A stretch of 64,000 nucleotides of DNA from Candidatus Parcubacteria bacterium (GTDB taxonomy: Bacteria > Patescibacteriota > Minisyncoccia > Phycocordibacterales > PALSA-1337). The DNA lies in contig CAVYBN010000012.1 of the NCBI GenBank assembly GCA_963766795.1, positions 220 through 64,219 of the forward strand. Reading direction: 5' to 3'. The translations under genes and the position numbers were made by a program. Under the pieces are notes generated by a model. That model saw only the letters and a program-made list of their open reading frames with translations, searched no databases and was not told where the DNA came from. Below, in pieces: positions 28,461-39,663 of the stretch. Position 1 is the first letter of the stretch; every line of letters starts with the position of its first letter.

Positions 28461-30757
28461 TTATTTGCTATATAGCTCCTTCTGAAATCCAAAAAAGGTC
28501 GAGCGGATCATATCGACTTCGCCTAGAACATTCACCGCGTTAGCAATGGCATGATACTTTAGATTCAAGAGGACCGGGAGTTTTTCTTCATCAAGCTCCT
28601 CGACTCCTTTTTCTTCGTACTTTGACAATACAAAATCCAAAAACTCCTTTTGCTTCTCGTCCAATCCTTCGAATATCTTCTTCTTTGCGTGCTCAACTCT
28701 TTGCACTCTGGAGATCGGCGGCGTCAAGAAAGAAACATACGATAATACGTCGAACAGGTCGCTTTGTTCCGCATCGATCATTTTTTGAAGCATCTCCAGT
28801 TCATCTTTGCCGTATCCCATAGCCGATATCTTTTCAAGGAACGCTTTTCGAGTTATCGGATCAGACCATATCTTCCGTAGCTCTTCCTCGCTCTTGAAGA
28901 ATTCCGGCATCGCCCCGAACATATTATCCATGAATTCTTGGATCGAGACCGGTTTGCCGTCAGCGCCCCAGAAAGAAGTGGCGATCATGTGCTGGATCTC
29001 GCGCTCTTTTCCATCGCGCAGCTTTATCTTCAATGTCTGTTTTGTAGGCACTGGCTCTGGCGGAACAGGCGGCTCTCTCTGTTCTTTAGGCTCCTTTGGT
29101 TCTCTCGGTTCTTTCTCTTTTATATCCTCTATCGGTTCGCCGTCCCATTCCGGATCGGAGAAATGATAATACGCGTTTACGAAATCATATATGGTGAAGT
29201 ATTCCTTGCCGTCGAAAAGCCGGGTGCCGCGTCCGATGATCTGCTTGAACTCGATCATTGAATTGACTGGGCGCATCAGCACGATATTGCGTATGTTCCT
29301 GGCATCGACGCCGGTGGAAAGCTTCTGTGATGTGGTCAAAACCGTCGGGATCGACTTTTCATTATCCTGAAACTCCCGCAAGATATTGTTCTCCTCGAGC
29401 GCCGTCATTGGCCGTTACGCGCGCGCAGTAATTCGGGTCTTTGCTTTTCTTATATTGATTGACCAGATCGCGCACTAGGAGCGCGTGAGTCTGGGTCGCG
29501 CAGAAGATTATCGTCTTCTCGTTCTGATCGATGTCATCCAAGACGAATCTGACTCGCTTCGACTTCTCTAGCCACGATCTCGATAGTCCGGTTAAATTCA
29601 GGCTCCCTGTAGATCTTTCCTTGCTCAACCTCACCTTCGATGATCTGGTCGTCCGAAACATACATGTAATCATCGAGAGTAGTCTGTATGCGCTTGATTT
29701 TGAATGGCGTCAAGAATCCGTCGTTGATGCCCTCTTTGAGAGAATAGACATATACCGGCTCGCCAAAATATTTATATGTATCGACATTATCCTTGCGTTT
29801 CGGAGTAGCGGTAAGGCCAAGCTGTACTGCCGGTGAGAAATATTCCAGGATTCCGCGCCAGTTGCTTTCGTCATTGGCACCGCCGCGATGGCATTCATCG
29901 ATGATGATCAAGTCAAAGAAATCCGGCTCGTATTCTCCGAAATATTCCGCGCCGTCCGGTCCGCTCATGAATGTCTGGAAGATGGTGAAGAAGACGCTTC
30001 CACCCATGGGAACGCCTCCTTTCTTTCGAATGTCGAGAGGATTTACGCGCACTTTGGCGTCGCTCGGAAAGATCGAGAAATCATTGCCGAACGCTTGGTC
30101 GGCAAGAATATTCCTATCGGCCAAAAACAGGATCCTCGGTCTGCGCGTGCCATCGCGCTTCAAATTCCAACGAGTTTGAAATAATTTCCAGGAAATCTGC
30201 GCCGCCACGGCCGTCTTGCCGGTTCCGGTAGCCATAGTGAGCAATATTCGCGACTTTTCTTCGGCGATAGCGTCGAGGACTTTGTTAATCGCCAATTCCT
30301 GATAATATCGCTTGCCATGCTCGCCCTCTATTGGAATAGCGGTGAATTTTTCTTTCCATTCGTTTTGATCCGAATATGTCTTATCCCACAATTCATCCGG
30401 TGTCGGGATTTTTGCCACTACCCCTTCTTTACCTGACTTCATGGAAACCTGGTAGATTTCTTTGCCATTCGTAGAGTAAGTGTAATCGATATCTAATTTT
30501 TTCGCGTACGATTTCGCTTGCGCCGCTCCTTCAGTCGCCGACAACTCCGCTTGCTTGGCTTCGATGACGGCGATCTTGCGGTTCTTGTAGACCAGGACAT
30601 AGTCGGCGATCTCCGGCTTGCTTCGCTTCCCGCCGACTTGGATCTTGCCTTCAGTGATGCGTAACTCCCGAAGGATTTTTGAATCCTCGGCCTCTCCCCA
30701 CCCGCTTGCCTTGAGCATCGGGTCTATGTACTCGGCTCGCGTTTCCGCCTCGTTCAT
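28461..30757 (-). pseudogene. hsdR: type I restriction enzyme R subunit (HsdR), split into three ORFs by two frameshifts as assembled
   Basis: N-terminal MNEAETRAEYIDPMLKASGW nuclease domain, helicase motifs MATGTGKT and DECHRG, TATP, TSQKLSTGVDARNI and QIIGRGTR, plus a C-terminal EcoEI_R_C-like tail. The frame changes near 29545-29580 and 29362-29408. Confidence 0.85.
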
Positions 30758-30776
30758 GGCTTAAATATGCCACAGA

Positions 30777-31334
30777 CTAGGCATTTTGGCTAGACTGTTT
30801 GATTTTTAAGGCTAAAGGAGCTTTTTCAATCGTATGTACTAATAGTTTTAACGCCAATTCTACGCGTTCAATATCACAACTTTTGACGCGAGGTTTGCTC
30901 AAATGAAATGTATTTCTTACGTCATTTAATTCCAGAATGTCATCAGCCGTCTTTTGTTGTATCAGTTTTTTGCTTAGGAAGAAAGTTATCAGATCATACA
31001 GGCCTATTTGATGATCTTTTTTCTCAATTTTTTCTCGTGCGGCGATGACTACCGGCAGATTGTCTTTTTCTTTGCAGATATATTTTTCTGACAGCTGTTC
31101 CGCGAACTTGTATTCGAAATATTCTATTTTTTCTCCGCGCTCTTTGTAAAAATAAAGAAGCATCGCTTCTATCGCCGATATGACATATAAGATGATGACT
31201 CTGTAAGTTTCTTCTTTGTATAATTGCTCCTGCCCCGCGCTCTTTGATCGATCGTAAAGGGCATAGATATACTCTATGGAATTTTCTAAAATATTACGGA
31301 GTTTTCCGTCATTGATAAAATCGAGATCAGCCAT
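30777..31334 (-). CDS. all-helical hypothetical protein between hsdS and hsdR; possible degenerate HEPN/DUF4145-like protein
   Basis: 185-aa AT-rich ORF. The C-terminal LELNDVRNTFHLS has an R-N-x-x-H, one residue short of the canonical Rx4-6H. The function is unresolved. Confidence 0.45.
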   Translation of the reverse strand: MADLDFINDGKLRNILENSIEYIYALYDRSKSAGQEQLYKEETYRVIILYVISAIEAMLLYFYKERGEKIEYFEYKFAEQLSEKYICKEKDNLPVVIAAREKIEKKDHQIGLYDLITFFLSKKLIQQKTADDILELNDVRNTFHLSKPRVKSCDIERVELALKLLVHTIEKAPLALKIKQSSQNA

Positions 31335-31339
31335 AAAAT

Positions 31340-31513
31340 TTATCTTGATCTCTGTTGAGTCATCTTGAGAAGCTTTGCCAGAGACGGCAAACCTTCTTTT
31401 TCCAATACGGTATAAAGTTTGGCATCGGATCGATAATTCAAATTTACGCCATATTTCTTTTCTATGGTTCTCACCAATGTATCTCCTCTTTTTTTACGCA
31501 TTAGTTTACTCAT
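31340..31513 (-). CDS. small basic protein (57 aa), candidate regulator of the downstream 185-aa gene
   Basis: Found by hand; it is below the track length cutoff. MSKLMRKKRGDTLVRTIEKKYGVNLNYRSDAKLYTVLEKEGLPSLAKLLKMTQQRSR. Its stop lies 5 nt before the next ATG. Confidence 0.35.
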   Translation of the reverse strand: MSKLMRKKRGDTLVRTIEKKYGVNLNYRSDAKLYTVLEKEGLPSLAKLLKMTQQRSR

Positions 31514-31574
31514 GGCTGAAGTATAGCACGCTTTACAGCTCGCCGCTAAATGCTTTTTTGATTTATGCTAATTG

Positions 31575-31630
31575 TGGCGAATTCGCCATAATTAAAGCTA
31601 CTTAATTTCCAAAGGGGTCGAATTCGACCC
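31575..31630 (-). promoter_or_regulatory. pair of perfect GAATTC-centred palindromes upstream of the 57-aa ORF (candidate operators)
   Basis: TGGCGAATTCGCCA (31575-31588) and GGGTCGAATTCGACCC (31615-31630) share the core CGAATTCG. Confidence 0.35.
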
Positions 31631-31728
31631 ATTTGAGAGTATGGTCATTTACCATAATACCCAGCCAAAAGGCCATCTTTTTAGATTACTATTAATTTAC
31701 TATTAATTTTGCTTAAATTAATAGAAAG

Positions 31729-32909
31729 TTATAACTCCCCAACAAAAGCCCTCTTCAGCACCGACTTTTTCAGCTCCTCCAGATCCGCGATCTTCCGCTC
31801 GTATATATTTTCCAGATTTTTCGTCTCCGCCGCCAGCGCATCCAGTTTTTTGACGATGGTTTTTTGGACAGTAAGTGATTTTGGATAACGAAAAAGAATT
31901 TGTTTTACCGCACCACCGTTAAACTGAGGCTGAGCAGAACCTGCAGATAATTGTCGAACTTGGTCCCAATAGTGCTTAGATTTAGAAAAATACCAGTACA
32001 ACTTGCTCAAAAGGTTTTTTCTAAACTTCATTCTAATCAAATACGAAGCAAATATTGCTTTTTCATTGCTTTCAAAAAAAAGTACATTTCCAGCAGAAGC
32101 ACCCGTTCGTGCCATTAATAAATCTCCGTTGCCCATAAATATTTGCTTGCACCGTTAAAAGTTTTCACATACATCTTATTTTCTTGTGTAAGTAGGCCAT
32201 TTTTATCAGTGTCAGTAATTCTTATGAATCTGTAGTCACCTTTGCTTTTAGCCTTTTCTGTGTATCCATACTCAACTTCACAAACTTCTCCAAGTTTCTT
32301 CTCCTCCCAATTCTTCCCTTGCTTTGCAAAAACACTTTGCAGATATGCTTCAAAAAGCTCTTTAGAATTCTGCAGATTCTTCTCTGCATTTTCCTTGGCT
32401 TTTACGACTTTTTCAAAGACATTATCCAAGATTTTTACAATACGGTGCTGGTCGGGAAGAGGTGGAAGTGGGATTTCGATTTCTCTTAATTTTGTCCCTG
32501 AAAGCTCTTTGAATGTTGTACCACTACCCAGACTGTTTAAAAGTTTAACTGAGTCTTTAAGAAAGTAATACAGATATTTAGTGTCGAGCTGTCTATTCGG
32601 TATCAAACCTCTACATCCCTGATTTGTTGAGATTCGTTTTGTATTTATAGCAAGATGACCAATAGGGGCTCGGGTAGACAAGATGATTGAGTTGGGCGGA
32701 ATGATTTTTGCGGATGATTCTTCTAAACCTGCCTCTGTGATTTTTCGATCTGTTTCTTCAACAAATATTCCTTCAAGTTTTCCCATGTCTTTTGGCGTAA
32801 TCCATAAAATATCTCCATCCCAGTATCTCAAAATACCAGTTTTAGGAGTTCCTCCGTTTACAATCTCACATACATCACCAAGTTTTTTTGTTTGCCAGTT
32901 AGTTATCAT
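31729..32909 (-). pseudogene. hsdS: type I R-M specificity subunit (HsdS), frameshifted as assembled
   Basis: Two target-recognition halves: WQTKKLGDVCEIVNGGTP... and WEEKKLGEVCEVEYGYT...GDLLMARTGASAGN..., with conserved coiled-coil spacers. ORFs 32115..32909 and 31729..32136 rejoin with one extra base near 32118-32130. Confidence 0.8.
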
Positions 32910-33394
32910 GATTTGATTTTGCCATCCTCGTAAAATACTACCTGAGGCTCATTTAAACGATCAAAACCTATAAATACTCCCAATCTGTATTTATAAGGAC
33001 CGTCATGTCTAGTGAATTCAATTAATTTTGCATTATCACACTCGTTAACAGAATTTGATTTATTAGGTTTTATCTCAAATATGACTAGATTACAATCAGT
33101 ATTACGACGATGGATATTAATATCCGGGTAAACATATTCTTGATGCTCGCCTCTGCATTCTCGCGGCAAGATTTTTGTTAAAATCCCATGTTTATTATAT
33201 TCACAATCTACATGCCAACCTGGAAATTGCCGTTGAAGATACTCTGCTAGTTTATGGGCTATAGATCTTTCGTGTACGGATTTTTCTAACAAAAAGGCGT
33301 CATCTTTATACAACAAATCAAGAGCAATGCATATATTCCTTTTAATCTCCGCATCACTGATCTCGCCAAGTTTTTTTGTTTGCCATGCGGTCAT
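32906..33394 (-). CDS. PD-(D/E)xK nuclease-like protein whose first 11 codons duplicate the hsdS start
   Basis: The candidate PD...E-x-K motif is YPDINIHRR...NLVIFEIK. The N-terminus MTAWQTKKLGE parallels hsdS MITNWQTKKLGD. The 20-nt CCAAGTTTTTTTGTTTGCCA is identical at 33366-33385 and 32878-32897. Its stop overlaps the hsdS ATG (ATGA). Confidence 0.5.
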   Translation of the reverse strand: MTAWQTKKLGEISDAEIKRNICIALDLLYKDDAFLLEKSVHERSIAHKLAEYLQRQFPGWHVDCEYNKHGILTKILPRECRGEHQEYVYPDINIHRRNTDCNLVIFEIKPNKSNSVNECDNAKLIEFTRHDGPYKYRLGVFIGFDRLNEPQVVFYEDGKIKS

Positions 33395-33395
33395 A

Positions 33396-33866
33396 TCATT
33401 TCTTTAAATACTGATGCCTTGCGTCATTATATTCTCTGACTACTATATCGTAGAATTTTTTGAAATCTTTATCTTGAATTGCAGAATTAAAATCACCGTT
33501 CATAAGATCTTGAAATCTCTGATTCGTATCGCTACCATATGCCCACTGTAAAAATTTCACGCAAGCTTCATGTAATTGATCGTCTGCTAAATAAATGCTT
33601 TCCTTAATGATGTTCTCAATTTGAGATAATATTCTTGTAGGCAAATCAGAATGTAAGTCTGCATAGTCGCCATCTTCTGATCTGGCCCAGGCATCTGTAG
33701 AAATTTCGTCTAAATGTAAGATAATATACAAAGGAAGTAGGAGATTAGTCAGTCTTTGCTTCAATAAACCTTTTGACGCCTTCTTGTGTGTTTGATATTC
33801 AAAATAAGCGATGTTACCGATTACTCCAAGAACAGCGACTGTAATTATAGATACTAGATTAGACAT
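33396..33866 (-). CDS. N-terminally membrane-anchored helical protein of unknown function
   Basis: 156-aa AT-rich ORF with TM segment LVSIITVAVLGVIGNIAYF. There is a 1-nt gap to the next gene. Confidence 0.45.
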   Translation of the reverse strand: MSNLVSIITVAVLGVIGNIAYFEYQTHKKASKGLLKQRLTNLLLPLYIILHLDEISTDAWARSEDGDYADLHSDLPTRILSQIENIIKESIYLADDQLHEACVKFLQWAYGSDTNQRFQDLMNGDFNSAIQDKDFKKFYDIVVREYNDARHQYLKK

Positions 33867-33892
33867 AAAGTTTTTTGTTTGCTATAGCATAA

Positions 33893-34687
33893 TCAGGTAT
33901 TTTGAGTATATAGATATTGCATATATGAAAACCAATCTCGTGCATGCACTTTCAATCTTTCCAAATCTTTAGGAGTTATGGGATTATTGTGGGCGATAAC
34001 ATTTCTTGTAGGGCCTAGTTCTTCAAGTTTACCGATTAAATTCTTTTGTGCCCCCTTTTTAAACAGTTTGCAAAATTCTTTGTCAAAAACACGAATAATT
34101 GATACTAGCTCCAAATAATCCGTATAGTAGATTTCATGGGCGCCTCTCTTTGAATGGTACCAGTTATCAGAGTCGCTTGCTTTTCTGGAGTCAACTTTAC
34201 GTACCGTTTCTTTTAATGATTTTTTATTCCTAACCTCCAGCCACCAGTTACCGCCGTAAACGCCCAGAAGTATTTTTGTGATGAAAGTGCGTATAGAATT
34301 TTCAAGAACAAACATAATTGAATATCCTTCTGAAGGAATATTTTTGTATACTGAGCCTCCTAAAAATGGATCAGAAAAATCATTTTTAGGAATCTGTACC
34401 GGATGAATGACTTTCCTGCTGGTTTTTGATTCGCCGATAATTTTATCTTTAGATTGACTATTTAATTCTAAACTCAGTTGAGCTTGTTGATTAGGATTAA
34501 GCCCGCGCATAAAAGTGGCCGTGCCGATTTTATACTTATCTGCAGTAATGATCAAAGCAACCTCAGGTGAAATCTTTTTCCTAAAAGCGAAAGCACTGAT
34601 ACTTTTCACAACTAACTTTGAAGATTTGCCTGTTTTGTCAGCAATTTTTTTTACCAATTTCTTGCTGTAGATCAAAGGTCTGCCCAT
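33893..34687 (-). CDS. HEPN-domain protein (Swt1/Abi-like) candidate RNase
   Basis: The C-terminal half shows ENSIRTFI...GGNWW...YTDYLELVSIIRVF...LEELGPTRNVIAHNN. The R-x4-H motif and spacing resemble Swt1-like and Abi HEPN families as I recall them. Confidence 0.6.
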   Translation of the reverse strand: MGRPLIYSKKLVKKIADKTGKSSKLVVKSISAFAFRKKISPEVALIITADKYKIGTATFMRGLNPNQQAQLSLELNSQSKDKIIGESKTSRKVIHPVQIPKNDFSDPFLGGSVYKNIPSEGYSIMFVLENSIRTFITKILLGVYGGNWWLEVRNKKSLKETVRKVDSRKASDSDNWYHSKRGAHEIYYTDYLELVSIIRVFDKEFCKLFKKGAQKNLIGKLEELGPTRNVIAHNNPITPKDLERLKVHARDWFSYMQYLYTQNT

Positions 34688-34698
34688 GTTATTTCTTG

Positions 34699-34860
34699 TT
34701 ACTTCTTCTTTATCTGTTTTGACGGCACCATTCTTGAGATAGTCGCCTTGTCAACGCCCAAAACCAGAGCAATGTCCGTACCTTGCATGCCCTTATTTAT
34801 CAAACTAAGCACCAATAACTTTTTGATGTCTTCAAGTGTTTGAATAGCTTTTTTGTCCAT
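34699..34860 (-). CDS. mini-HTH protein (53 aa), third tandem paralog
   Basis: Found by hand: MDKKAIQTLEDIKKLLVLSLINKGMQGTDIALVLGVDKATISRMVPSKQIKKK. It shares the hydrophobic helix plus HTH layout with the two upstream ORFs. Confidence 0.4.
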   Translation of the reverse strand: MDKKAIQTLEDIKKLLVLSLINKGMQGTDIALVLGVDKATISRMVPSKQIKKK

Positions 34861-34864
34861 AAAG

Positions 34865-35092
34865 TTATTTATCTTTATTTAGCTTATTTTTTTTGATAAG
34901 ACTTTTTGCCACATTTACATAATTAGTCGAAGTATTGAGAATCTCGGCAATTTCAGTAGGAGTTAAACCAAAACGGTCAAGCATTTTTATATTATCAGTA
35001 GCTGTTGCTTTACGGTCCATCGAAAGGAGGTTTAAAGCAATCAGCACTCCCAATTTTTTTGACATAGATTCAAGCAATTTATTTGTATCCAT
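34865..35092 (-). CDS. mini-HTH protein (75 aa), tandem paralog
   Basis: LGVLIALNLLS...IKMLDRFGLTPTEIAEILNTSTNYVNVAKSLIKK aligns by eye with the 72-aa neighbour. Confidence 0.5.
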   Translation of the reverse strand: MDTNKLLESMSKKLGVLIALNLLSMDRKATATDNIKMLDRFGLTPTEIAEILNTSTNYVNVAKSLIKKNKLNKDK

Positions 35093-35094
35093 AA

Positions 35095-35313
35095 TTATTT
35101 TTCCTTACGAATTGCGACTAATTCTTTGCTCACATGACCAGAGGATTTGCCGACAATTTTTGCAATCTCCACGGGTCTAACATTTAGTCCGTCTAATAAT
35201 CTTATTTGGTCCTTAAGTGACAATCCTGCTATATCTTTTGGCACAAGCTTAAGCAATATCGCTATTACGATATCTAGTTTCTGCCCCAATATTTCTTTAC
35301 CCTGTTCGTTCAT
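35095..35313 (-). CDS. mini-HTH protein (72 aa), tandem paralog
   Basis: LDIVIAILLKLV...IRLLDGLNVRPVEIAKIVGKSSGHVSKELVAIRK. It is the first gene after the cassette promoter. Confidence 0.5.
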   Translation of the reverse strand: MNEQGKEILGQKLDIVIAILLKLVPKDIAGLSLKDQIRLLDGLNVRPVEIAKIVGKSSGHVSKELVAIRKEK

Positions 35314-35347
35314 AAAGAATATAAGTAGTTAAATTAGTAATAAATCA

Positions 35348-35375
35348 AGTATATACCTTACAAAATATATGTCAA
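35348..35375 (-). promoter_or_regulatory. candidate sigma70-type promoter of the nested cassette (TTGACA-16-TATACT)
   Basis: Read on the minus strand: -35 at 35375-35370 and -10 at 35353-35348, about 35 nt upstream of the 72-aa ORF ATG. Confidence 0.4.
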
Positions 35376-35473
35376 ATAGTATGCACTAAACTACCCAGAT
35401 ACAGTATAAAGTAATTCCTTTGTCAACAAAGGCTAAAATGTAATATTTAGTTAACTGTCTTTATTAGTAAAAG

Positions 35474-36925
35474 TTAGACAAGATCTTTAATTTTACTCAA
35501 CATCTTTTCGCTCTCCCCATCCAACCTCCTCATCTCCTCCAAAATCTCCTTGGGTTCGCGCAAAACAACTTCCCCGCCTTTGTTCGGATTCTTCACTGAC
35601 AAATCGAAGGTTGTCTGATCCACGTTGGAAACGTCGATGCTCCAAGAATTTTCGGAATCCGCTTTGGTCTTTTGGAGCTTCACGAAATCGGCCAGATCGG
35701 CTTCGCTCAATGGATTGGTCTTGCCGAGGTTGCGCTTGAGATTCAATTGATAGAACCAGACCTTCTTTGTTGGACTGCCCTTTTCAAAAAACAATACGAC
35801 AGTTTTGACGCCAGCGCCGGCAAATACGCCGCCAGGAAGGTCGAGGACGGTATGCAGATTACAATTCTCAAGGAGCAACTTGCGCAAACTGACCGAGGCA
35901 TTGTCGGTATTCGAGAGAAAGGTATTCTTGATGACGATGCCCGCGCGACCGCCGGTTTTGAGGATCTTTATGAAGTGTTGCAAAAAGAGGAACGCCGTTT
36001 CGCCGGTCTTTATGGGGAAATTCTGCTGGATTTCGCGTCCGATACCGGCGCCGAAAGGCGGATTGGCCAGGATGATATCGTAACGGTCCTTTTCCTGGAT
36101 GTCGTTTATGTTCTGCGCCAGCGTGTTCATGTGCCTGATGTTCGGAGCCTCGATGCCGTGCAGGATCATGTTCATGATGCCGATGATGTATGCCAGAGAT
36201 TTAATCTCTTTCCCGTAGAATGTCTTGTTTTGAAGAGTCTCCATCTGGGCCGAAGACAGCTTGGCTTGGTTTTGAGTGAGAAAATTGTACGATTCAACCA
36301 AAAATCCGGCCGAGCCGCAGGCACCGTCATATATAGTCTCACTGATCTTCGGCGCCACTACCTTCACGATGGTCCTGATGAGCGGCCTGGGAGTGTAATA
36401 TTCCCCGCCGTTCCTGCCGGCATTGCCCATGTTCTTGATCTTGGCTTCGTATAGATGCGAAAGCTCGTGCTTCTCTTCGTACAGCCGGAAGTGCATGCCG
36501 TCCACGATGTTCAAGATCTCGCGCAGTTTATATCCGCTGGAGATCTTATTTTTCAGCTCGCTGAATATCTCTCCTATTTTATATTCGATAGTATCCGGCT
36601 CTTCGGCCTTGAATTTCTTAAGATATGGGAACAGTTTCTGATTCACGAAGTCATTCAGGTCGTCGCCGTCGAGAGCTTTATGATGGTCTATCTTACCGTC
36701 GATTGTCTTCGGCGCTGCCCAAGAATTCCACCGGTATTGCTGGTCCAGAATGTAATCATACTTCTTGCCGGCCAAGGCCGCCTCTGTCTTCTTTGTCTCA
36801 TCCAAATCATCGAGATACTTCAAAAACAAAATCCATGAAGTCTGTTCAACGTAGTCCAGCTCTGTAGCCGAGCCAGAGTCGGTGTGGAGTATCTGGTCTA
36901 TGTTTTTGAATGATTGTTCGAACAT
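35474..36925 (-). CDS. hsdM: type I R-M N6-adenine DNA methyltransferase subunit (HsdM)
   Basis: HsdM N-terminal domain (ELDYVEQTSWILFLKYLDD), EYYTPRPL, DGACGSAGFL and ILANPPFG motifs. I prefer the ATG at 36925 (MFEQSFKNID). The track start at 37006 would overlap the NYN gene. Confidence 0.9.
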   Translation of the reverse strand: MFEQSFKNIDQILHTDSGSATELDYVEQTSWILFLKYLDDLDETKKTEAALAGKKYDYILDQQYRWNSWAAPKTIDGKIDHHKALDGDDLNDFVNQKLFPYLKKFKAEEPDTIEYKIGEIFSELKNKISSGYKLREILNIVDGMHFRLYEEKHELSHLYEAKIKNMGNAGRNGGEYYTPRPLIRTIVKVVAPKISETIYDGACGSAGFLVESYNFLTQNQAKLSSAQMETLQNKTFYGKEIKSLAYIIGIMNMILHGIEAPNIRHMNTLAQNINDIQEKDRYDIILANPPFGAGIGREIQQNFPIKTGETAFLFLQHFIKILKTGGRAGIVIKNTFLSNTDNASVSLRKLLLENCNLHTVLDLPGGVFAGAGVKTVVLFFEKGSPTKKVWFYQLNLKRNLGKTNPLSEADLADFVKLQKTKADSENSWSIDVSNVDQTTFDLSVKNPNKGGEVVLREPKEILEEMRRLDGESEKMLSKIKDLV

Positions 36926-36935
36926 AAAAACTATC

Positions 36936-37454
36936 CTACCTCTTCCCCGCCCGCAATAGATATTTATTCGACGCCTCGTCCAAGTCCATGAAATGGTCGG
37001 TGGCATCGATCAGCTTGGCAGAGGTGGATTTGCCGAAGGAGACCACTTCCACCTGGCAACCTTGATTCATCTGCAGGTATTCCACCAACGGCACGAAGTC
37101 GCCGTCGCCGGTTATGAGAATGACCGCGTCGAGCTTCGGCGACAATTTGACCGCGTCGATCGCCAGCCCCACGTCCCAGTCCGCCTTCTTGGCACCCGAG
37201 CTGAAGATCTGCAGATCCTTGATCTTTGTCTCGATGCCCATCTTGACCAAGGCGTCGAAGAAGGCGCTCTCCTCGCCGGATTCCGTCTTGATGACGTACG
37301 CGATCGCGCGCACCAGCTTCCTGCCGTCGAGCGCGTCTTTGACGATTGCGCCGAAATTGACCTTCGAATGATAGAGATTCTTGCCGCTGTGATACAGATT
37401 CTGCGCGTCTATGAAGATGCCCACGCGCTGCTCCTTATGTTTGATGACTGCCAT
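36936..37454 (-). CDS. NYN/LabA-like domain protein (predicted RNase fold)
   Basis: RVGIFIDAQNLYHS...LVRAIAYV...DWDVGLAIDAV...DAVILITGDGDFVPLVEYL fits the NYN (LabA-like) pattern. Its stop lies 10 nt before the hsdM ATG. Confidence 0.75.
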   Translation of the reverse strand: MAVIKHKEQRVGIFIDAQNLYHSGKNLYHSKVNFGAIVKDALDGRKLVRAIAYVIKTESGEESAFFDALVKMGIETKIKDLQIFSSGAKKADWDVGLAIDAVKLSPKLDAVILITGDGDFVPLVEYLQMNQGCQVEVVSFGKSTSAKLIDATDHFMDLDEASNKYLLRAGKR

Positions 37455-38110: not shown

Positions 38111-38736
38111 GCGGGCGATTTGGCTTGAATCCCGTTCCCGTTGTTTCCGACTTTAAGGTTTGTGCGAGCCCATTAGCCGTTTGCTTTGGCCACTACAGCC
38201 TCATGCAATCCGAGTCCCCTTTTAGGAGGAATGGGGATGTTTCCAATGGATGTACGACGGTATAGTCTCCTTTCAGCCACAATCGCAATGCTGCGGCAGA
38301 TTTCTTCTGGCGAATTTCGGGCGAGTCCATCATTCATTCATTTTCAATTAAACCCGGCATAACAATTTCTTGGATGCCGATCCCAATGGAAGTGGACTCG
38401 CGGGCCGGTGGCGGCGATCATTAGGTCAAATATTTGCCGCGCAGGCCGGGGCCGGAGGCGCCGACGAAGGGGGAATCTTGGCTCTTATTCTTCTGGCCAG
38501 CGAAGGCCACAATGATATTCGAATTCGGGGGGCTTTTGTTCATAATATATGCCTTTCTATCAAGCCGTTTGTTGTTTTAAGCTTGAGTAGTTGGGATGAC
38601 CTCCAAACCTGCGCACACGCGCGATTTTGGTGGAATCGTGATTCAAAGATCATCCCGAAAACATGCTAGCACGCTCGAATTATTTGTCAAGTACAAGAAA
38701 ATATTGCCTATTGCGAGGCTATGCTACAATAAAACC

Positions 38737-39663
38737 ATGTCGCACAATATCAAGGACTTGAAACAGCAATTCCTCGAATACACCGAGATCGAAAAAGGCC
38801 GATCGATCAAGACTGTCATCAATTATGATCATTATCTCACGCGATTCATAACCTTTTCAAAGGTCAAAAACTGTGAAGATATCACGGCTGACAGTATCCG
38901 TAATTATCGCCTGTGGCTCAACCGGCAATCTACTGGCCATGTGCGCAATGGTCCGGAGACTCTGAAGAAGAAGACACAAAACTATCATCTGATCGCTCTG
39001 CGCGCGTTCCTTAAGTACCTCGCCAAGCGCGGGATCAAATCATTATCGCCGGAGCATGTCGAGCTGGCCAAGGTCGGCGAACGGCATATCGATCTAATTT
39101 CAAGCGATGAATTGAAGCGTCTTTTCGATGCGACCAGAGGCGACGATCTCAAATCACTAAGAGATAGAGCCATTTTAGAGCTTTTATTTTCCACTGGCCT
39201 GCGCGTTTCAGAGCTATGCTCGCTGACGCGAGATACCGATTTCAATGCTGAAAGTTTTTCTATCCGCGGCAAGGGAGAGAAGATCCGCGTCGTCTTCATG
39301 TCCGACGAGGCCAGGAAGGCAGTGAAGAATTATCTGGCTAAGCGCGCGGATGTCGAGGACTCTCTGTTTGTCCGCGTTCCCGGCGTTGAAATGAAAGGTT
39401 GGCAGAAACAGCAGGCATTAACGACAAGATCAGTCGAACGCATCATCAAACATTACGCAATCAAAGCTGGCATATCCAAGAAAGTCACGCCGCACGTCAT
39501 TCGCCATTGTTTTGCCACTGACTTGCTCGGCAACGGCGCCGATTTAAGATCAGTCCAAATGCTTCTCGGCCACGCCAACATTTCCACGACTCAAATCTAT
39601 ACGCACGTCACCGACGCTGAACTCAAAAGAGTTCATAAGCAGTTTCATAATCGGAAAAGATGA
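38737..39663 (+). CDS. tyrosine recombinase, XerC/XerD family
   Basis: N-terminal SAM-like domain (FLEYTEIEKGRSIKTVINYDHYL) and a catalytic region with LLFSTGLRVSEL, HVIRHCFAT, LLGHANISTTQIYTH. I prefer the ATG at 38737. Confidence 0.85.
   Translation: MSHNIKDLKQQFLEYTEIEKGRSIKTVINYDHYLTRFITFSKVKNCEDITADSIRNYRLWLNRQSTGHVRNGPETLKKKTQNYHLIALRAFLKYLAKRGIKSLSPEHVELAKVGERHIDLISSDELKRLFDATRGDDLKSLRDRAILELLFSTGLRVSELCSLTRDTDFNAESFSIRGKGEKIRVVFMSDEARKAVKNYLAKRADVEDSLFVRVPGVEMKGWQKQQALTTRSVERIIKHYAIKAGISKKVTPHVIRHCFATDLLGNGADLRSVQMLLGHANISTTQIYTHVTDAELKRVHKQFHNRKR

Follow-up and report, generated by a model that had tools for sequence, protein, structure and literature searches.

In type I restriction-modification (R-M) systems the target-recognition domains (TRDs) of the specificity subunit HsdS change places through recombination between the repeats on either side of them (Furuta et al. 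2011, PMC3077401; reviewed in PMC3874165), and hsdM and hsdS overlap and are translationally coupled (PMC3510504). Type I R-M operons are known to harbour embedded defence genes, PrrC among them (PMC3874165; bioRxiv 10.1101/2024.01.29.577857), and EcoprrI is known to sequester PrrC (PMC3874165). Gene junctions can themselves form an evolutionary unit that reaches from the 3' part of one ORF across the junction into the 5' part of its neighbour (Tsuru and Kobayashi 2008, PMC2568036), and the PD-lambda-3 system, which has a PD-(D/E)xK domain (PMC10952713), acts by abortive infection, as reported for the E. coli system (PMC13190303). The window analysed here, a stretch of DNA of 64 kb, holds a type I operon in which copies of the hsdS start head genes other than hsdS. 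To our knowledge there is so far no explanation of how genes can embed without breaking overlapping, translationally coupled hsd genes. The answer we propose is that the junction or hsdS start would be duplicated, that the newcomer would take over the original initiation region, and that the repeat would let cassettes travel with TRD1; the locus and its relatives suggest that additional defence genes join type I systems, and move with them, via recombination at the conserved hsdS start.

The operon lies entirely on the minus strand in the order hsdM ... T-hsdS ... hsdR, the gene under study (ORF162, hereafter T) being embedded in it in the same orientation. The gene for the methyltransferase subunit, hsdM (35474..36925), was placed from the ORF list and its homologues, as the listed ORF reaches 37006 and the homologues begin MFEQSFKNID at 36925; it is 76-86% identical to the hsdM genes of four other loci (L161, L081, L164 and L166) with HsdM_N/N6_Mtase Pfam matches. 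Then come three small embedded ORFs (72, 75 and 53 aa, 34699..35313), two with weak, sub-threshold helix-turn-helix-like matches (Pfam HTH), and an embedded Swt1-like HEPN protein of 264 aa (33893..34687) that its profile matches (Pfam HEPN_Swt1 5.5e-11, PADLOC PDC-M34B 1.2e-27) make a candidate phage-defence protein. ORF156 (cassette 1, 33396..33866), a small protein with a hydrophobic N-terminal segment, T (cassette 2, 32906..33394) and the specificity gene hsdS (31729..32909; Pfam Methylase_S 1.5e-45 and 1.2e-07) complete this part of the operon. One frameshift splits hsdS into ORFs of 264 aa (32115-32909) and 135 aa (31729-32136); the frame change is seen by tblastn with the HsdS of L167, full-length homologues having about 390-400 aa, and is also present in an independent assembly (L177). 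The interval to hsdR holds two small ORFs (57 and 185 aa, 30777..31513), at the position of which L167 carries genes of 59 and 180 aa, homology being confirmed by tblastn only for the 57-aa ORF. The restriction subunit gene hsdR (28461..30757) is broken into three ORFs by two frameshifts, and the HsdR of L167 matches it at 81-85% identity over the three frames (tblastn). As both hsdS and hsdR are frameshifted, the host type I system may be dead. The AT-rich block (34-38% GC) spans hsdS and the embedded genes, and a promoter and terminator scan returned counts no better than in shuffles. A tyrosine recombinase gene is found at 38596-39663, 1.6 kb past hsdM, and is not conserved with the locus. 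Across relatives, hsdS begins at the T stop in 38 of 111 informative loci, and hsdM is upstream in 46 of the same 111. The first 160 T loci contain no homologues of the HEPN protein, ORF156 or the 185-aa ORF of the window, indicating that T has no fixed partner; the recognised defence neighbours across embedded-gene loci comprise PDC-M34B, PDC-M43A/B, a Gabija-like pair, Fic and DUF3800.

The 20-nt string CCAAGTTTTTTTGTTTGCCA, which reads TGGCAAACAAAAAAACTTGG on the coding (minus) strand, occurs in the window as two exact copies, at 32878-32897 and 33366-33385, and the same two are recovered with up to three mismatches on both strands, with 0 in 100 dinucleotide shuffles and a chance expectation of 0 copies. 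In hsdS (MITNWQTKKLGD...) it takes up codons 5-11 and in ORF162 (MTAWQTKKLGE...) codons 4-10, exactly as the preliminary description had reported, and the overlap of the ORF162 stop TGA with the hsdS ATG, as ATGA at 32906-32909, is likewise borne out. Beyond the 20-mer the copies agree at 22 of 23 nt (..GG[C/T]GA) and 27 of 32 nt, after which the flanks are unrelated. Given the common peptide and the codon usage of the locus, identical Q, T, K, K and L codons would arise with P ~0.007, and the local alignment of copy 1 within its own locus scores 20.5 against a shuffle maximum of 14. At its wider limits motif copy 1 (33363..33385, TGGCAAACAAAAAAACTTGGCGA) encodes the W-Q-T-K-K-L-G-E tail of ORF162, and copy 2 (32875..32897, TGGCAAACAAAAAAACTTGGTGA) is the hsdS 5' constant region, codons 5-12. 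Copy 3 (33867..33890, ATGCTATAGCAAACAAAAAACTTT) is a decayed hsdS start that abuts the ATG of ORF156 and reads ATG CTA TAG CAAACAAAAAACTTT, TGG having become TAG and the A7 run A6; with it the window forms an array of motif-ORF156, motif-T and motif-hsdS, in units of about 490-500 nt with one motif per cassette. A weaker relative within hsdS (32278..32309, NWEEKKLGEVCEV), 72% identical to the reference copy, lies at the start of the second TRD. A core pattern scan found three matches in the window and none in 1.28 Mb of shuffled sequence, and all motif copies in the window share the strand of the genes and mark gene 5' ends. The arrangement is repeated in an independent assembly, a Logan contig (run ERR11593882) that is 100% identical over 31906-34394.

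The T protein holds, by its sequence, as a PD-(D/E)xK-fold protein related to component A of PD-lambda-3, with a putative nuclease activity, in agreement with the PD-ExK-like assignment made originally. It matches the PADLOC profile PD-Lambda-3_A at 3.1e-22 (residues 16-145 on profile positions 15-148 of 159), and the residues P90 D91 ... E107 x K109 are invariant in 77 T homologues, as are E42, D63 and E65. The AF2 model has a pLDDT of 89.4 and a pTM of 0.85, residues 1-8 falling below 50, and its best PDB match by Foldseek is 3ijm, a 'restriction endonuclease-like fold superfamily protein', with probability 1.00 but E 3.8e-3 and a TM of 0.45-0.49. The HsdS-derived N-terminal tail is predicted by this model to lie outside the fold and to be disordered, and in L164 it is lost with the body intact, leaving a remnant (ATGAAAAATAATTGGAAATAG) and a new start, MISDLEIK. 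PD-lambda-3 itself was reportedly the subject of work by Vassallo et al. in 2022. On an E. coli plasmid component B, a Hypoth_Ymh/HEPN-like protein of 267 aa, directly follows component A, and the reference plasmid A protein matches the PD-Lambda-3_A profile at 2.3e-100. No homologue of PD-Lambda-3_B was found among the ORFs of the window, and the phage and plasmid collections gave only distant T homologues, one of which leads to a bona fide PD-lambda-3 A+B locus. T presumably serves in defence and, as its first ten or so codons copy the hsdS 5' constant region, would be translated from the former hsdS start.

The T family is wide, with 244 genome matches and at least 579 metagenome matches, and the HsdS-like tail is present in only one subclade, found mainly in Patescibacteria-type metagenomic genomes. 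Most members of this subclade, at about 40-81% identity, carry a W(Q/P)TKKLGE tail joined to the body at a constant junction, and the fusion of the hsdS start to T is old and inherited by the whole subclade. The cassette insertion that the preliminary description proposed thus stands in part: ORF162 does begin with a duplicate of the hsdS start, and the former initiation region would be the one in use, but with a clade-wide tail the event was neither one-off nor recent. Nor is the tail tied to the hsdS context: it is kept on T copies without an adjacent hsdS (for instance L002, L088 and L162) and in L115, also away from hsdS, a situation that the preliminary description had itself named as counting against its reading. 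W, T, K, K and L of the tail are kept and the Leu and Gly codons vary synonymously; degenerate tails occur in several T lineages (P0013, P0018, P0020 and P0031), and in many P-type loci a WPTKKL tail on T stands beside WRSRKL or WQSRKL in hsdS. The tail of the window T matches orthologous T tails (17-24 of 24) as well as it matches its own hsdS, and T and hsdM diverge in parallel across related loci (T 75, 74 and 62%, hsdM 86, 86 and 80%). Gene conversion between T tail and hsdS within loci was considered and set aside, as it left no clear signal, tail identity between close T orthologues (84% at the nucleotide level) being barely above that of the body (76%). The sequence W(Q/E)(T/I/V)KKLG(E/D)V is the generic start of the HsdS family, with Pfam Methylase_S aligning from residue 4, and a motif generic in HsdS and restricted to one subclade in T indicates capture in the direction hsdS to T. 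A neighbour-joining tree of T (156 columns, weakly resolved) separates the two subgroups that bear the motif, and lineages without it fall in between; the tree is compatible with one capture followed by losses or with two captures.

The same footprint, which the preliminary description suggested looking for at other type I loci and on other cassettes, recurs in several settings. A second T clade repeats, at the end of T, the hsdM tail ..NLExLGYGx* together with the overlapping hsdS start, the junction repeat scoring 20/20 in L030 and 18/20 in L160; this hsdM tail is generic in 24 of 43 hsdM genes, and LGYG tails persist on T copies away from hsdS (L018, L013 and L010). As a further independent case L079 was rejected, its T and hsdS sharing only the first four codons (MTAQ), which is too weak. 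ORF156, without a countable Pfam, PADLOC or NCBIfam match, has 22 homologues, and four homologue contexts (L170/171, L174, L175 and L176) place it directly upstream of hsdS in type I loci; in the window, in L170 and in L176 its ATG is immediately preceded by a motif copy, which is better preserved in the latter two and is non-coding. A family here called X (L125/L131) carries the tails MPCPTKKLEE and MDSNYPTKKLRE, which have lost the Trp through W-to-C and W-to-Y changes, on a protein otherwise unrelated to T. Over 7,562 ATG-initiated ORFs of at least 80 aa from all loci, the motif falls within the first 14 residues only in HsdS, T, X and one likely spurious ORF. The upstream neighbours of T and ORF156 vary by locus, and the junction motif-cassette-hsdS is constant.

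L161, L163, L164, L166, L170, L175 and L176 all carry the identical 20-mer in hsdS despite their unrelated TRDs, and viral contigs lack it. The conservation of the motif as DNA among hsdS alleles would be attributable to its position flanking the variable TRD1, and, since hsdS genes whose TRDs are unrelated begin with this DNA too, the exact 20-nt identity cannot date the event. The proposed comparison with a relative that lacks the insert is provided by L161 and L167, which belong to the type I family of the window (hsdM 86% for L161, hsdR 81% for L167). From the upstream gene through the start codon as far as ..CTTGGTGA, L161 (order upstream gene-T-hsdS) keeps colinearity with L167, which has no T (upstream gene-hsdS); L161 then diverges into the T body, and a second copy restores hsdS. 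The difference between these loci may be a loss of T in L167 or a gain in L161. L125 and L131 share a block of 1,676 nt at 97.9% identity, made up of X, T and the first half of hsdS within unrelated flanks; the left end of the block lies exactly at the motif heading X and its right end about 600 nt into hsdS; this breakpoint evidence comes from a single pair of metagenome contigs.

Our preferred reading, to which we would give a probability of roughly 60%, is that the embedded defence cassettes move as hitch-hikers when TRDs are shuffled by recombination at the conserved start of hsdS. The founding event would be an insertion just inside hsdS or, in the second T clade, at the overlap of hsdM stop and hsdS start, and the duplication of 20-30 nt would have persisted because neither of the overlapping, translationally coupled genes could be broken, the second motif copy downstream restoring a complete hsdS. 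The motif could afterwards serve as a homology arm: recombination using the motif and the central conserved hsdS region would move blocks of cassettes with TRD1 between type I loci, and recombination between flanking motif copies would give precise gain or loss of one cassette. The repeats, their homology to hsdS, their inheritance by clade, the arrays and the one block running from motif to mid-hsdS are direct observations, and recombination would be the mechanism behind them. Against the hitch-hiking view, 17-23 nt is short for RecA-type recombination, only the L125/L131 pair shows breakpoints at the motif, and the tail and body identities give no strong signal of repeated homogenisation. 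Tail residues that are kept as their codons vary, and tails that persist off hsdS, also fit protein-level selection at least as well as a DNA-level role. The lack of a PD-lambda-3 component B and the frameshifts in hsdS and hsdR count on the same side. A stronger version, in which the hsdS 5' repeat is a gene-capture platform of Patescibacteria-type type I systems, with cassettes gained, lost, reordered, expressed from the captured start and moving with TRD1, and with tails that may tether effectors, seems to us distinctly unlikely; if true, restriction specificity and the accessory defence repertoire would be shuffled in one step.

Of the alternatives, the one that would make the repeats mere scars, left by a few ancient fusions that were passively inherited, kept by coding constraint alone and shared through ordinary hsd recombination, is rather unlikely in our view. 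It accounts for the captured tails that are clade-wide in both T clades, for the constant tail/body junctions of T and ORF156, for the absence of excess homogenisation within loci, and for the decay of tails where they are unneeded, as in window copy 3, L164 and the altered Trp of X; it does not sit well with the left end of the L125/L131 block exactly on the first motif codon and not inside the flanking gene, with the same signature in three unrelated families forming arrays, or with a constant junction to hsdS behind upstream neighbours that vary. The HsdS-like N-tail and HsdM-like C-tail could, by analogy with PrrC, be mimics that dock the nuclease on the type I complex and hold it latent, a reading compatible with the hitch-hiking view. 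The conserved W/T/K/K/L with synonymous Leu and Gly codons, the tails kept away from hsdS (L002, L088, L115, and LGYG in L018, L013 and L010), their form as a flexible extension outside the fold and the precedent of PrrC sequestered by EcoprrI (PMC3874165) would all be expected of such mimics; yet L164 has lost the tail from an intact T body, tails are degenerate in P0013, P0018, P0020 and P0031, Trp is gone from those of X, and the motif copy of ORF156 is non-coding, and we regard mimicry as quite improbable.

The simplest history, that a promoterless cassette recently inserted in the hsdS of this genome with a fresh 20-bp target duplication and hijacked its start, draws on the exact direct repeat with unrelated flanks, the ATGA overlap, the low probability (~0.007) of the same codons given the same peptide and the AT-rich block over hsdS and the embedded genes. 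It takes identity as recency, whereas the 20-mer is invariant in the hsdS of many loci; the same tail and junction recur in dozens of T homologues, with identities as low as about 40-45% and in part off hsdS, T diverges in parallel with hsdM, and the window tail is as similar to orthologous tails as to its own hsdS, all of which makes a recent insertion very unlikely. Insertion of a transposon or IS was rejected, the 490-nt units having no terminal inverted repeats or transposase and the repeats, at 20-32 nt, being too long for the 2-14 bp target duplications of such elements. Site-specific integration, with the motif as attachment site of a dedicated recombinase that perhaps acts in trans, would suit the array layout of one motif per cassette of about 490-500 nt, expression from the host gene's initiation region and the tyrosine recombinase gene beyond hsdM. 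The recombinase or integron-like signatures that the preliminary description had suggested searching for did not materialise: only 5 of 160 T loci have a tyrosine-recombinase homologue, a search of both strands turned up neither attC-like inverted repeats nor a palindromic core, no inverted repeat marks the cassette ends, the motif has no reverse-strand copy, and the L125/L131 block ends on its right in the central hsdS region, as is typical of homologous exchange. Without an integrase association or attC-type ends, identity as integron cassettes was rejected, and an integron-like system in general is more improbable even than recent insertion. Chance, low-complexity sequence or faulty assembly could be suspected from the A-rich motif (A7 run) and the metagenomic origin of the sequences, and we regard any of these as practically negligible, with 0 matches expected, all copies on the gene strand at gene 5' ends, the arrangement repeated in an independent assembly and across many unrelated samples, and repeats shorter than typical final assembler k-mers.

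If the hitch-hiking reading is general, an hsdS-start motif at the 5' end of an ORF other than hsdS would be a signature for new defence genes in poorly studied lineages, specificity switching would be linked to turnover of the defence repertoire, and the unusual terminal peptides, HsdS-like or HsdM-like, that unrelated proteins carry would be explained.

Among described systems the locus resembles TRD shuffling and DOMO (domain movement). The motif corresponds to the 'x' repeat that begins each TRD, with copies at the starts of T, TRD1 and, more weakly, TRD2; its DNA is conserved across alleles with different TRDs, and the one exchanged block (L125/L131) ends at the repeat and in the central conserved hsdS region. 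Unlike in DOMO, what stands behind each extra repeat is no TRD but a whole foreign ORF (T, ORF156 or X) that has a stop of its own, and the repeat gives these ORFs a start codon, an N-terminal tail or a mini-uORF; the literature consulted does not describe such arrays of non-hsdS genes. Like PrrC in EcoprrI and the candidates of Payne et al. (2024), the embedded genes are accessory, of defence type and placed between hsd genes on the same strand. PrrC is held by EcoprrI, and sequestration of T by the complex is only putative. By a term search, the Payne et al. preprint (bioRxiv 10.1101/2024.01.29.577857) does not mention hsdS and uses 'duplicat' once, for the removal of duplicate sequences; it therefore appears to contain no account of duplicated junctions or starts, of tails taken from HsdS or of arrays headed by the motif.

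With PD-lambda-3 T shares the match to the component A profile and the PD-(D/E)xK motif, at about 34-37% identity to the plasmid A proteins; it differs in sitting inside a type I operon without B, the nearby HEPN_Swt1 protein being of a different family (PDC-M34B). As in integron cassettes and in integrative elements that bring a copy of the target gene's end (at tRNA genes, for example), tandem, putatively promoterless ORFs are each bounded by a copy of one short site, expression would come from host signals and the target gene is rebuilt by a duplicated segment; by contrast, the site here lies within coding sequence and the pattern of exchange looks like homologous recombination. A parallel to the duplicated unit is the case of Tsuru and Kobayashi, since in both T clades this unit is a gene junction and not a gene, one clade duplicating the hsdM stop with the hsdS start and the other the hsdS 5' end. 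Their case concerns tandem paralogues, whereas here unrelated genes are inserted between the junction copies.

The 20-mer CCAAGTTTTTTTGTTTGCCA is found at 32878-32897 and at 33366-33385; the window has no other copy on either strand at up to three mismatches, and none of 100 dinucleotide-preserving shuffles contains a match. The genes of the locus all lie on the minus strand, where the 20-mer reads TGGCAAACAAAAAAACTTGG and encodes W-Q-T-K-K-L-G as codons 5-11 of hsdS (MITNWQTKKLGDV) and codons 4-10 of ORF162 (MTAWQTKKLGEI), the PD-(D/E)xK-like gene 5' of hsdS, hereafter T. The two copies agree at 22/23 nt, or at 27/32 nt over a longer stretch, between unrelated flanks, the T stop and the hsdS start share ATGA, and 31906-34394 is identical in an independent assembly of run ERR11593882, so that both the duplicated start and the stop-start overlap of the preliminary description are confirmed. 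Given the same peptide and the codon usage of the locus, the probability that all five degenerate codons would agree is about 0.007. Each copy carries A AAA AAA in frame, as an A7 run (32881-32887 and 33369-33375), at which homopolymer slippage could occur in replication, transcription or translation.

This arrangement can be compared at two loci that share the window's type I family. In L161 hsdM is followed by a PDC-M43A-like gene, a PDC-M43B-like gene, T and hsdS, while in L167 a PDC-M43B-like gene directly overlaps hsdS and there is no T. The L167 upstream-gene/hsdS and L161 upstream-gene/T junctions can be aligned past the start codon, to ..CTTGGTGA, beyond which L161 has the T body and then a second motif copy (31/32 nt) that restores hsdS. 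T lies immediately within the 5' end of hsdS, with the duplication on both sides, and would use the former hsdS initiation region, as the preliminary description had proposed. The peptide itself originates in hsdS, from which T acquired it, since HsdS proteins of this family typically carry W(Q/E)(T/I/V)KKLG(E/D)V at the N-terminus (WQTKKLGEV being commonest in a set of 120 homologues) and the Pfam Methylase_S alignment starts at HsdS residue 4. TGGCAAACAAAAAAACTTGG is identical in hsdS of L161, L163, L164, L166, L170, L175 and L176 and one base off in L081, L087 and L174, and the target-recognition domains (TRDs) behind it differ between loci. In a second type I family the version is TGGCCAACAAAAAAATTAGG, and that family's T tails carry it too. 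The 20-mer is thus the hsdS 5' constant region, the "x" repeat that starts each TRD, and a weaker copy stands at the TRD2 start of the window hsdS (32278-32309). Exact identity between T and hsdS therefore cannot date the duplication, and the window T tail matches orthologous T tails at 17-24/24 positions, as closely as it matches its own hsdS.

The tail is moreover inherited. W(Q/P)TKKLG(E) is N-terminal in most members of one T subclade, whose named members come from Patescibacteria or Minisyncoccia genomes and which spans 81% down to ~40-45% identity with a constant tail/body boundary between ..GE and I.D.EIK; the remaining subclades lack the motif. An NJ tree of T is compatible with one capture of the tail or with two. 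In related type I loci the divergence of T keeps pace with that of hsdM (T/hsdM identity to the window 75/86% in L161, 74/86% in L081 and 62/80% in L164). Motif-bearing T is also found without an adjacent hsdS (L088, L162), with neither hsdS nor hsdM within 6 kb (L002), with another gene intervening before hsdS (L163), and directly before a truncated hsdS remnant, MVQRWPTKKLGEIIF and a stop, whose hsdS body is gone (L115:5468-5515). The fresh, local, one-off insertion envisaged earlier is consequently not upheld: the 20-mer is constant in the hsdS of many loci, the tail is clade-wide, T carries it away from hsdS, an observation that the preliminary description had itself named as grounds for rejection, and two further gene families, described below, bear the same signature. 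The T body can stand alone, as it is kept in L164 after decay of the tail to the remnant ATGAAAAATAATTGGAAATAG, where a new start gives MISDLEIK. The tail shows protein-level conservation, W being retained in 19/19 T tails and Leu being encoded variously by TTA, CTT, CTA, CTC and TTG; by the precedent of PrrC (PMC3874165) it might, with low probability, act as a docking peptide.

ORF162 has no match in Pfam or NCBIfam but matches the PADLOC model PD-Lambda-3_A (3.1e-22). Eighty homologues were retrieved, and in the alignment of 77 the PD...ExK signature (P90, D91, E107, K109) is invariant. The AlphaFold2 model is confident (pLDDT 89.4, pTM 0.85), its best PDB match being 3ijm, of "restriction endonuclease-like fold" (probability 1.0, E 4e-3, TM 0.45-0.49). 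In the model residues 1-8, the HsdS-like peptide, have pLDDT <50 and residues 1-13 lack secondary structure, so the captured peptide is predicted to be a flexible tail outside the T fold. PD-lambda-3, described as an abortive-infection system (PMC13190303), has a PD-(D/E)xK domain (PMC10952713). In a genuine PD-lambda-3 locus on an E. coli plasmid component A is followed by B, a 267-aa Hypoth_Ymh/HEPN-like protein, and the window contains no component B; T is therefore related to component A but does not make up a PD-lambda-3 system.

T relatives occur in 244 species-representative genomes, bacterial and archaeal, and in at least 579 metagenome stretches. Of the 111 loci where T is flanked on each side by 600 nt or more, hsdS begins at the T stop in 38, usually with an overlap of 4-31 nt, and hsdM lies up to 3.5 kb upstream in 46; embedding between hsdM and hsdS is a habit of the family. 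At P-type loci, such as L102 (5429-5460), L082 and L125, the T C-terminus WYKNGQQKN-stop and the hsdS start MVQKW... share 31 nt in different frames, making the second motif copy dual-coding.

A second, independent kind of duplication marks a monophyletic T clade whose members span diverse phyla and include one from a Thermoplasmatales genome. Here T ends ..L(K/R)ELGYG(G/E)-stop, overlapping the hsdS start M(A/G)(G/S)EW, and the upstream hsdM ends ..NLE(A/E)LGYG(K/E)-stop, overlapping the T start. That hsdM ending is generic (24/43 hsdM genes, some of them at loci with other T types), and the C-terminal tail of this clade is HsdM-derived; the entire hsdM-stop/hsdS-start junction, with its AAGGAG ribosome-binding site, has been duplicated either side of T. 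Junctions of this type surround T in L030, L160, L028, L033, L154, L156, L159, L146, L143 and L024, the copies agreeing at 20/20 (L030), 18/20 (L160) and 17/20 (L028) positions, and own-locus alignment scores exceed every shuffle in L161, L081, L030, the window, L102, L160 and L028. The LGYG tail is kept in clade members away from hsdS (L018, L013, L010). The hsdM gene overlaps hsdS and the two are coupled in translation (PMC3510504), so that any insertion sparing both must duplicate the overlap, which accounts for the footprint.

Nor is T the only gene headed by the hsdS-start motif. A third motif copy in the window (33867-33890, minus strand; ATG CTA TAG CAAACAAAAAACTTT) directly abuts the ATG of ORF156, making ORF156 a second motif-headed cassette. 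This copy, as ATGCTATAGCAAACAAAAAACTTT, is decayed (TGG to TAG, A7 to A6); its A6 run, at 33871-33876, is one A shorter than in the other two. The core motif pattern matches three times in the window, each time at the 5' end of one of three consecutive genes, and not once in 1.28 Mb of shuffled DNA; the array is motif-ORF156, motif-T, motif-hsdS. ORF156 has 22 homologues and lies directly 5' of hsdS in four further type I contexts, beside differing passengers (DUF3800, RelA_SpoT, AAA ATPase, Fic). In L170 a well-preserved motif, ATGAAAACTAATTGGCAATCAAAAAAACTT, forms a 12-codon mini-ORF ending just past the ATG of the ORF156 homologue; L176 retains the copy ATGACTTGGCAAATAAAAACACTC, and L174 and L175 have lost it. 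The second family, X (L125:1776-2405 and L131:3896-4531; 209-211 aa, upstream of T), has no Pfam or PADLOC match and starts MPCPTKKLEE or MDSNYPTKKLRE. When its profile is compared with that of T, residues 1-14 align and nothing else does. The X body has an EVD...ELK stretch that may, from its sequence, be another nuclease motif. Of the 7,562 ORFs in all loci that start with ATG and reach 80 aa or more, only HsdS, T, X and one probably spurious ORF have a loosened form of the motif within their first 14 residues.

The window hsdS has one frameshift (32115-32136), seen also in the independent assembly L177, and hsdR has two (about 29362-29673) relative to intact homologues, so the restriction system may be inactive while its embedded genes are intact. 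The longest hsdM ORF has a 27-codon 5' extension (36926-37006) absent from homologues, and the true start is probably MFEQSF at 36925. Embedded after hsdM, on the minus strand, are a Swt1-like HEPN protein (PADLOC PDC-M34B; 33893-34687) and three small ORFs (34699-35313), two with weak helix-turn-helix-like matches; none has homologues among the first 160 T loci. Between hsdS and hsdR (30777-31513) the minus strand has two small ORFs, of 57 and 185 aa, where L167 (1955-2683) has 59-aa and 180-aa genes; tblastn confirmed homology for the 57-aa ORF only. In related type I loci the passengers from hsdM to the last cassette vary (L164:2034-5642; L161:4520-5997; L170, L174, L175, L176) and include Gabija-like OLD ATPase and UvrD helicase, PDC-M43A/B, DUF3800, RelA_SpoT, AAA_15/21 ATPases and Fic.

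How such cassettes move is suggested by one near-identical pair of loci (n=1), in which L125:1784-3459 and L131:3910-5585 are 97.9% identical over 1,676 nt between sequences unrelated on both sides. The block's left end falls exactly on the motif heading X and its right end ~600 nt inside hsdS, near the central conserved region, so that X and T are enclosed; this is the geometry expected of TRD1 exchange at flanking repeats with the cassettes riding inside, the homology available at the motif being short. Three further features fit such exchange: upstream neighbours of T and ORF156 vary by locus while the cassette-hsdS junction is constant; hsdS and all embedded ORFs of the window form an AT-rich block (30500-35500, 34-38% GC) lying between hsdM and hsdR at ~48-50% and flanks at 47-60%; and a search for integron-like or recombinase signatures found tyrosine-recombinase homologues in only 5/160 T loci and no inverted repeats at cassette ends, lending no support to integron-like machinery. 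The XerC/D-like tyrosine recombinase of the window (38596-39663, plus strand), 1.6 kb beyond hsdM, is, given that rarity, probably unrelated to the cassettes. Putative accessory defence cassettes that begin with the hsdS 5' constant repeat, or stand between copies of the hsdM/hsdS junction, form a recurrent pattern, and probably spread together with TRD-shuffling recombination. Movement of hsdS domains by recombination at flanking repeats (DOMO, PMC3077401) and TRD exchanges (PMC3874165) have been described, and the geometry at L125/L131 is the same, but here cassettes would travel inside the exchanged module. The pattern joins two themes already known, the embedding of defence genes and the shuffling of hsdS domains, in a new form.
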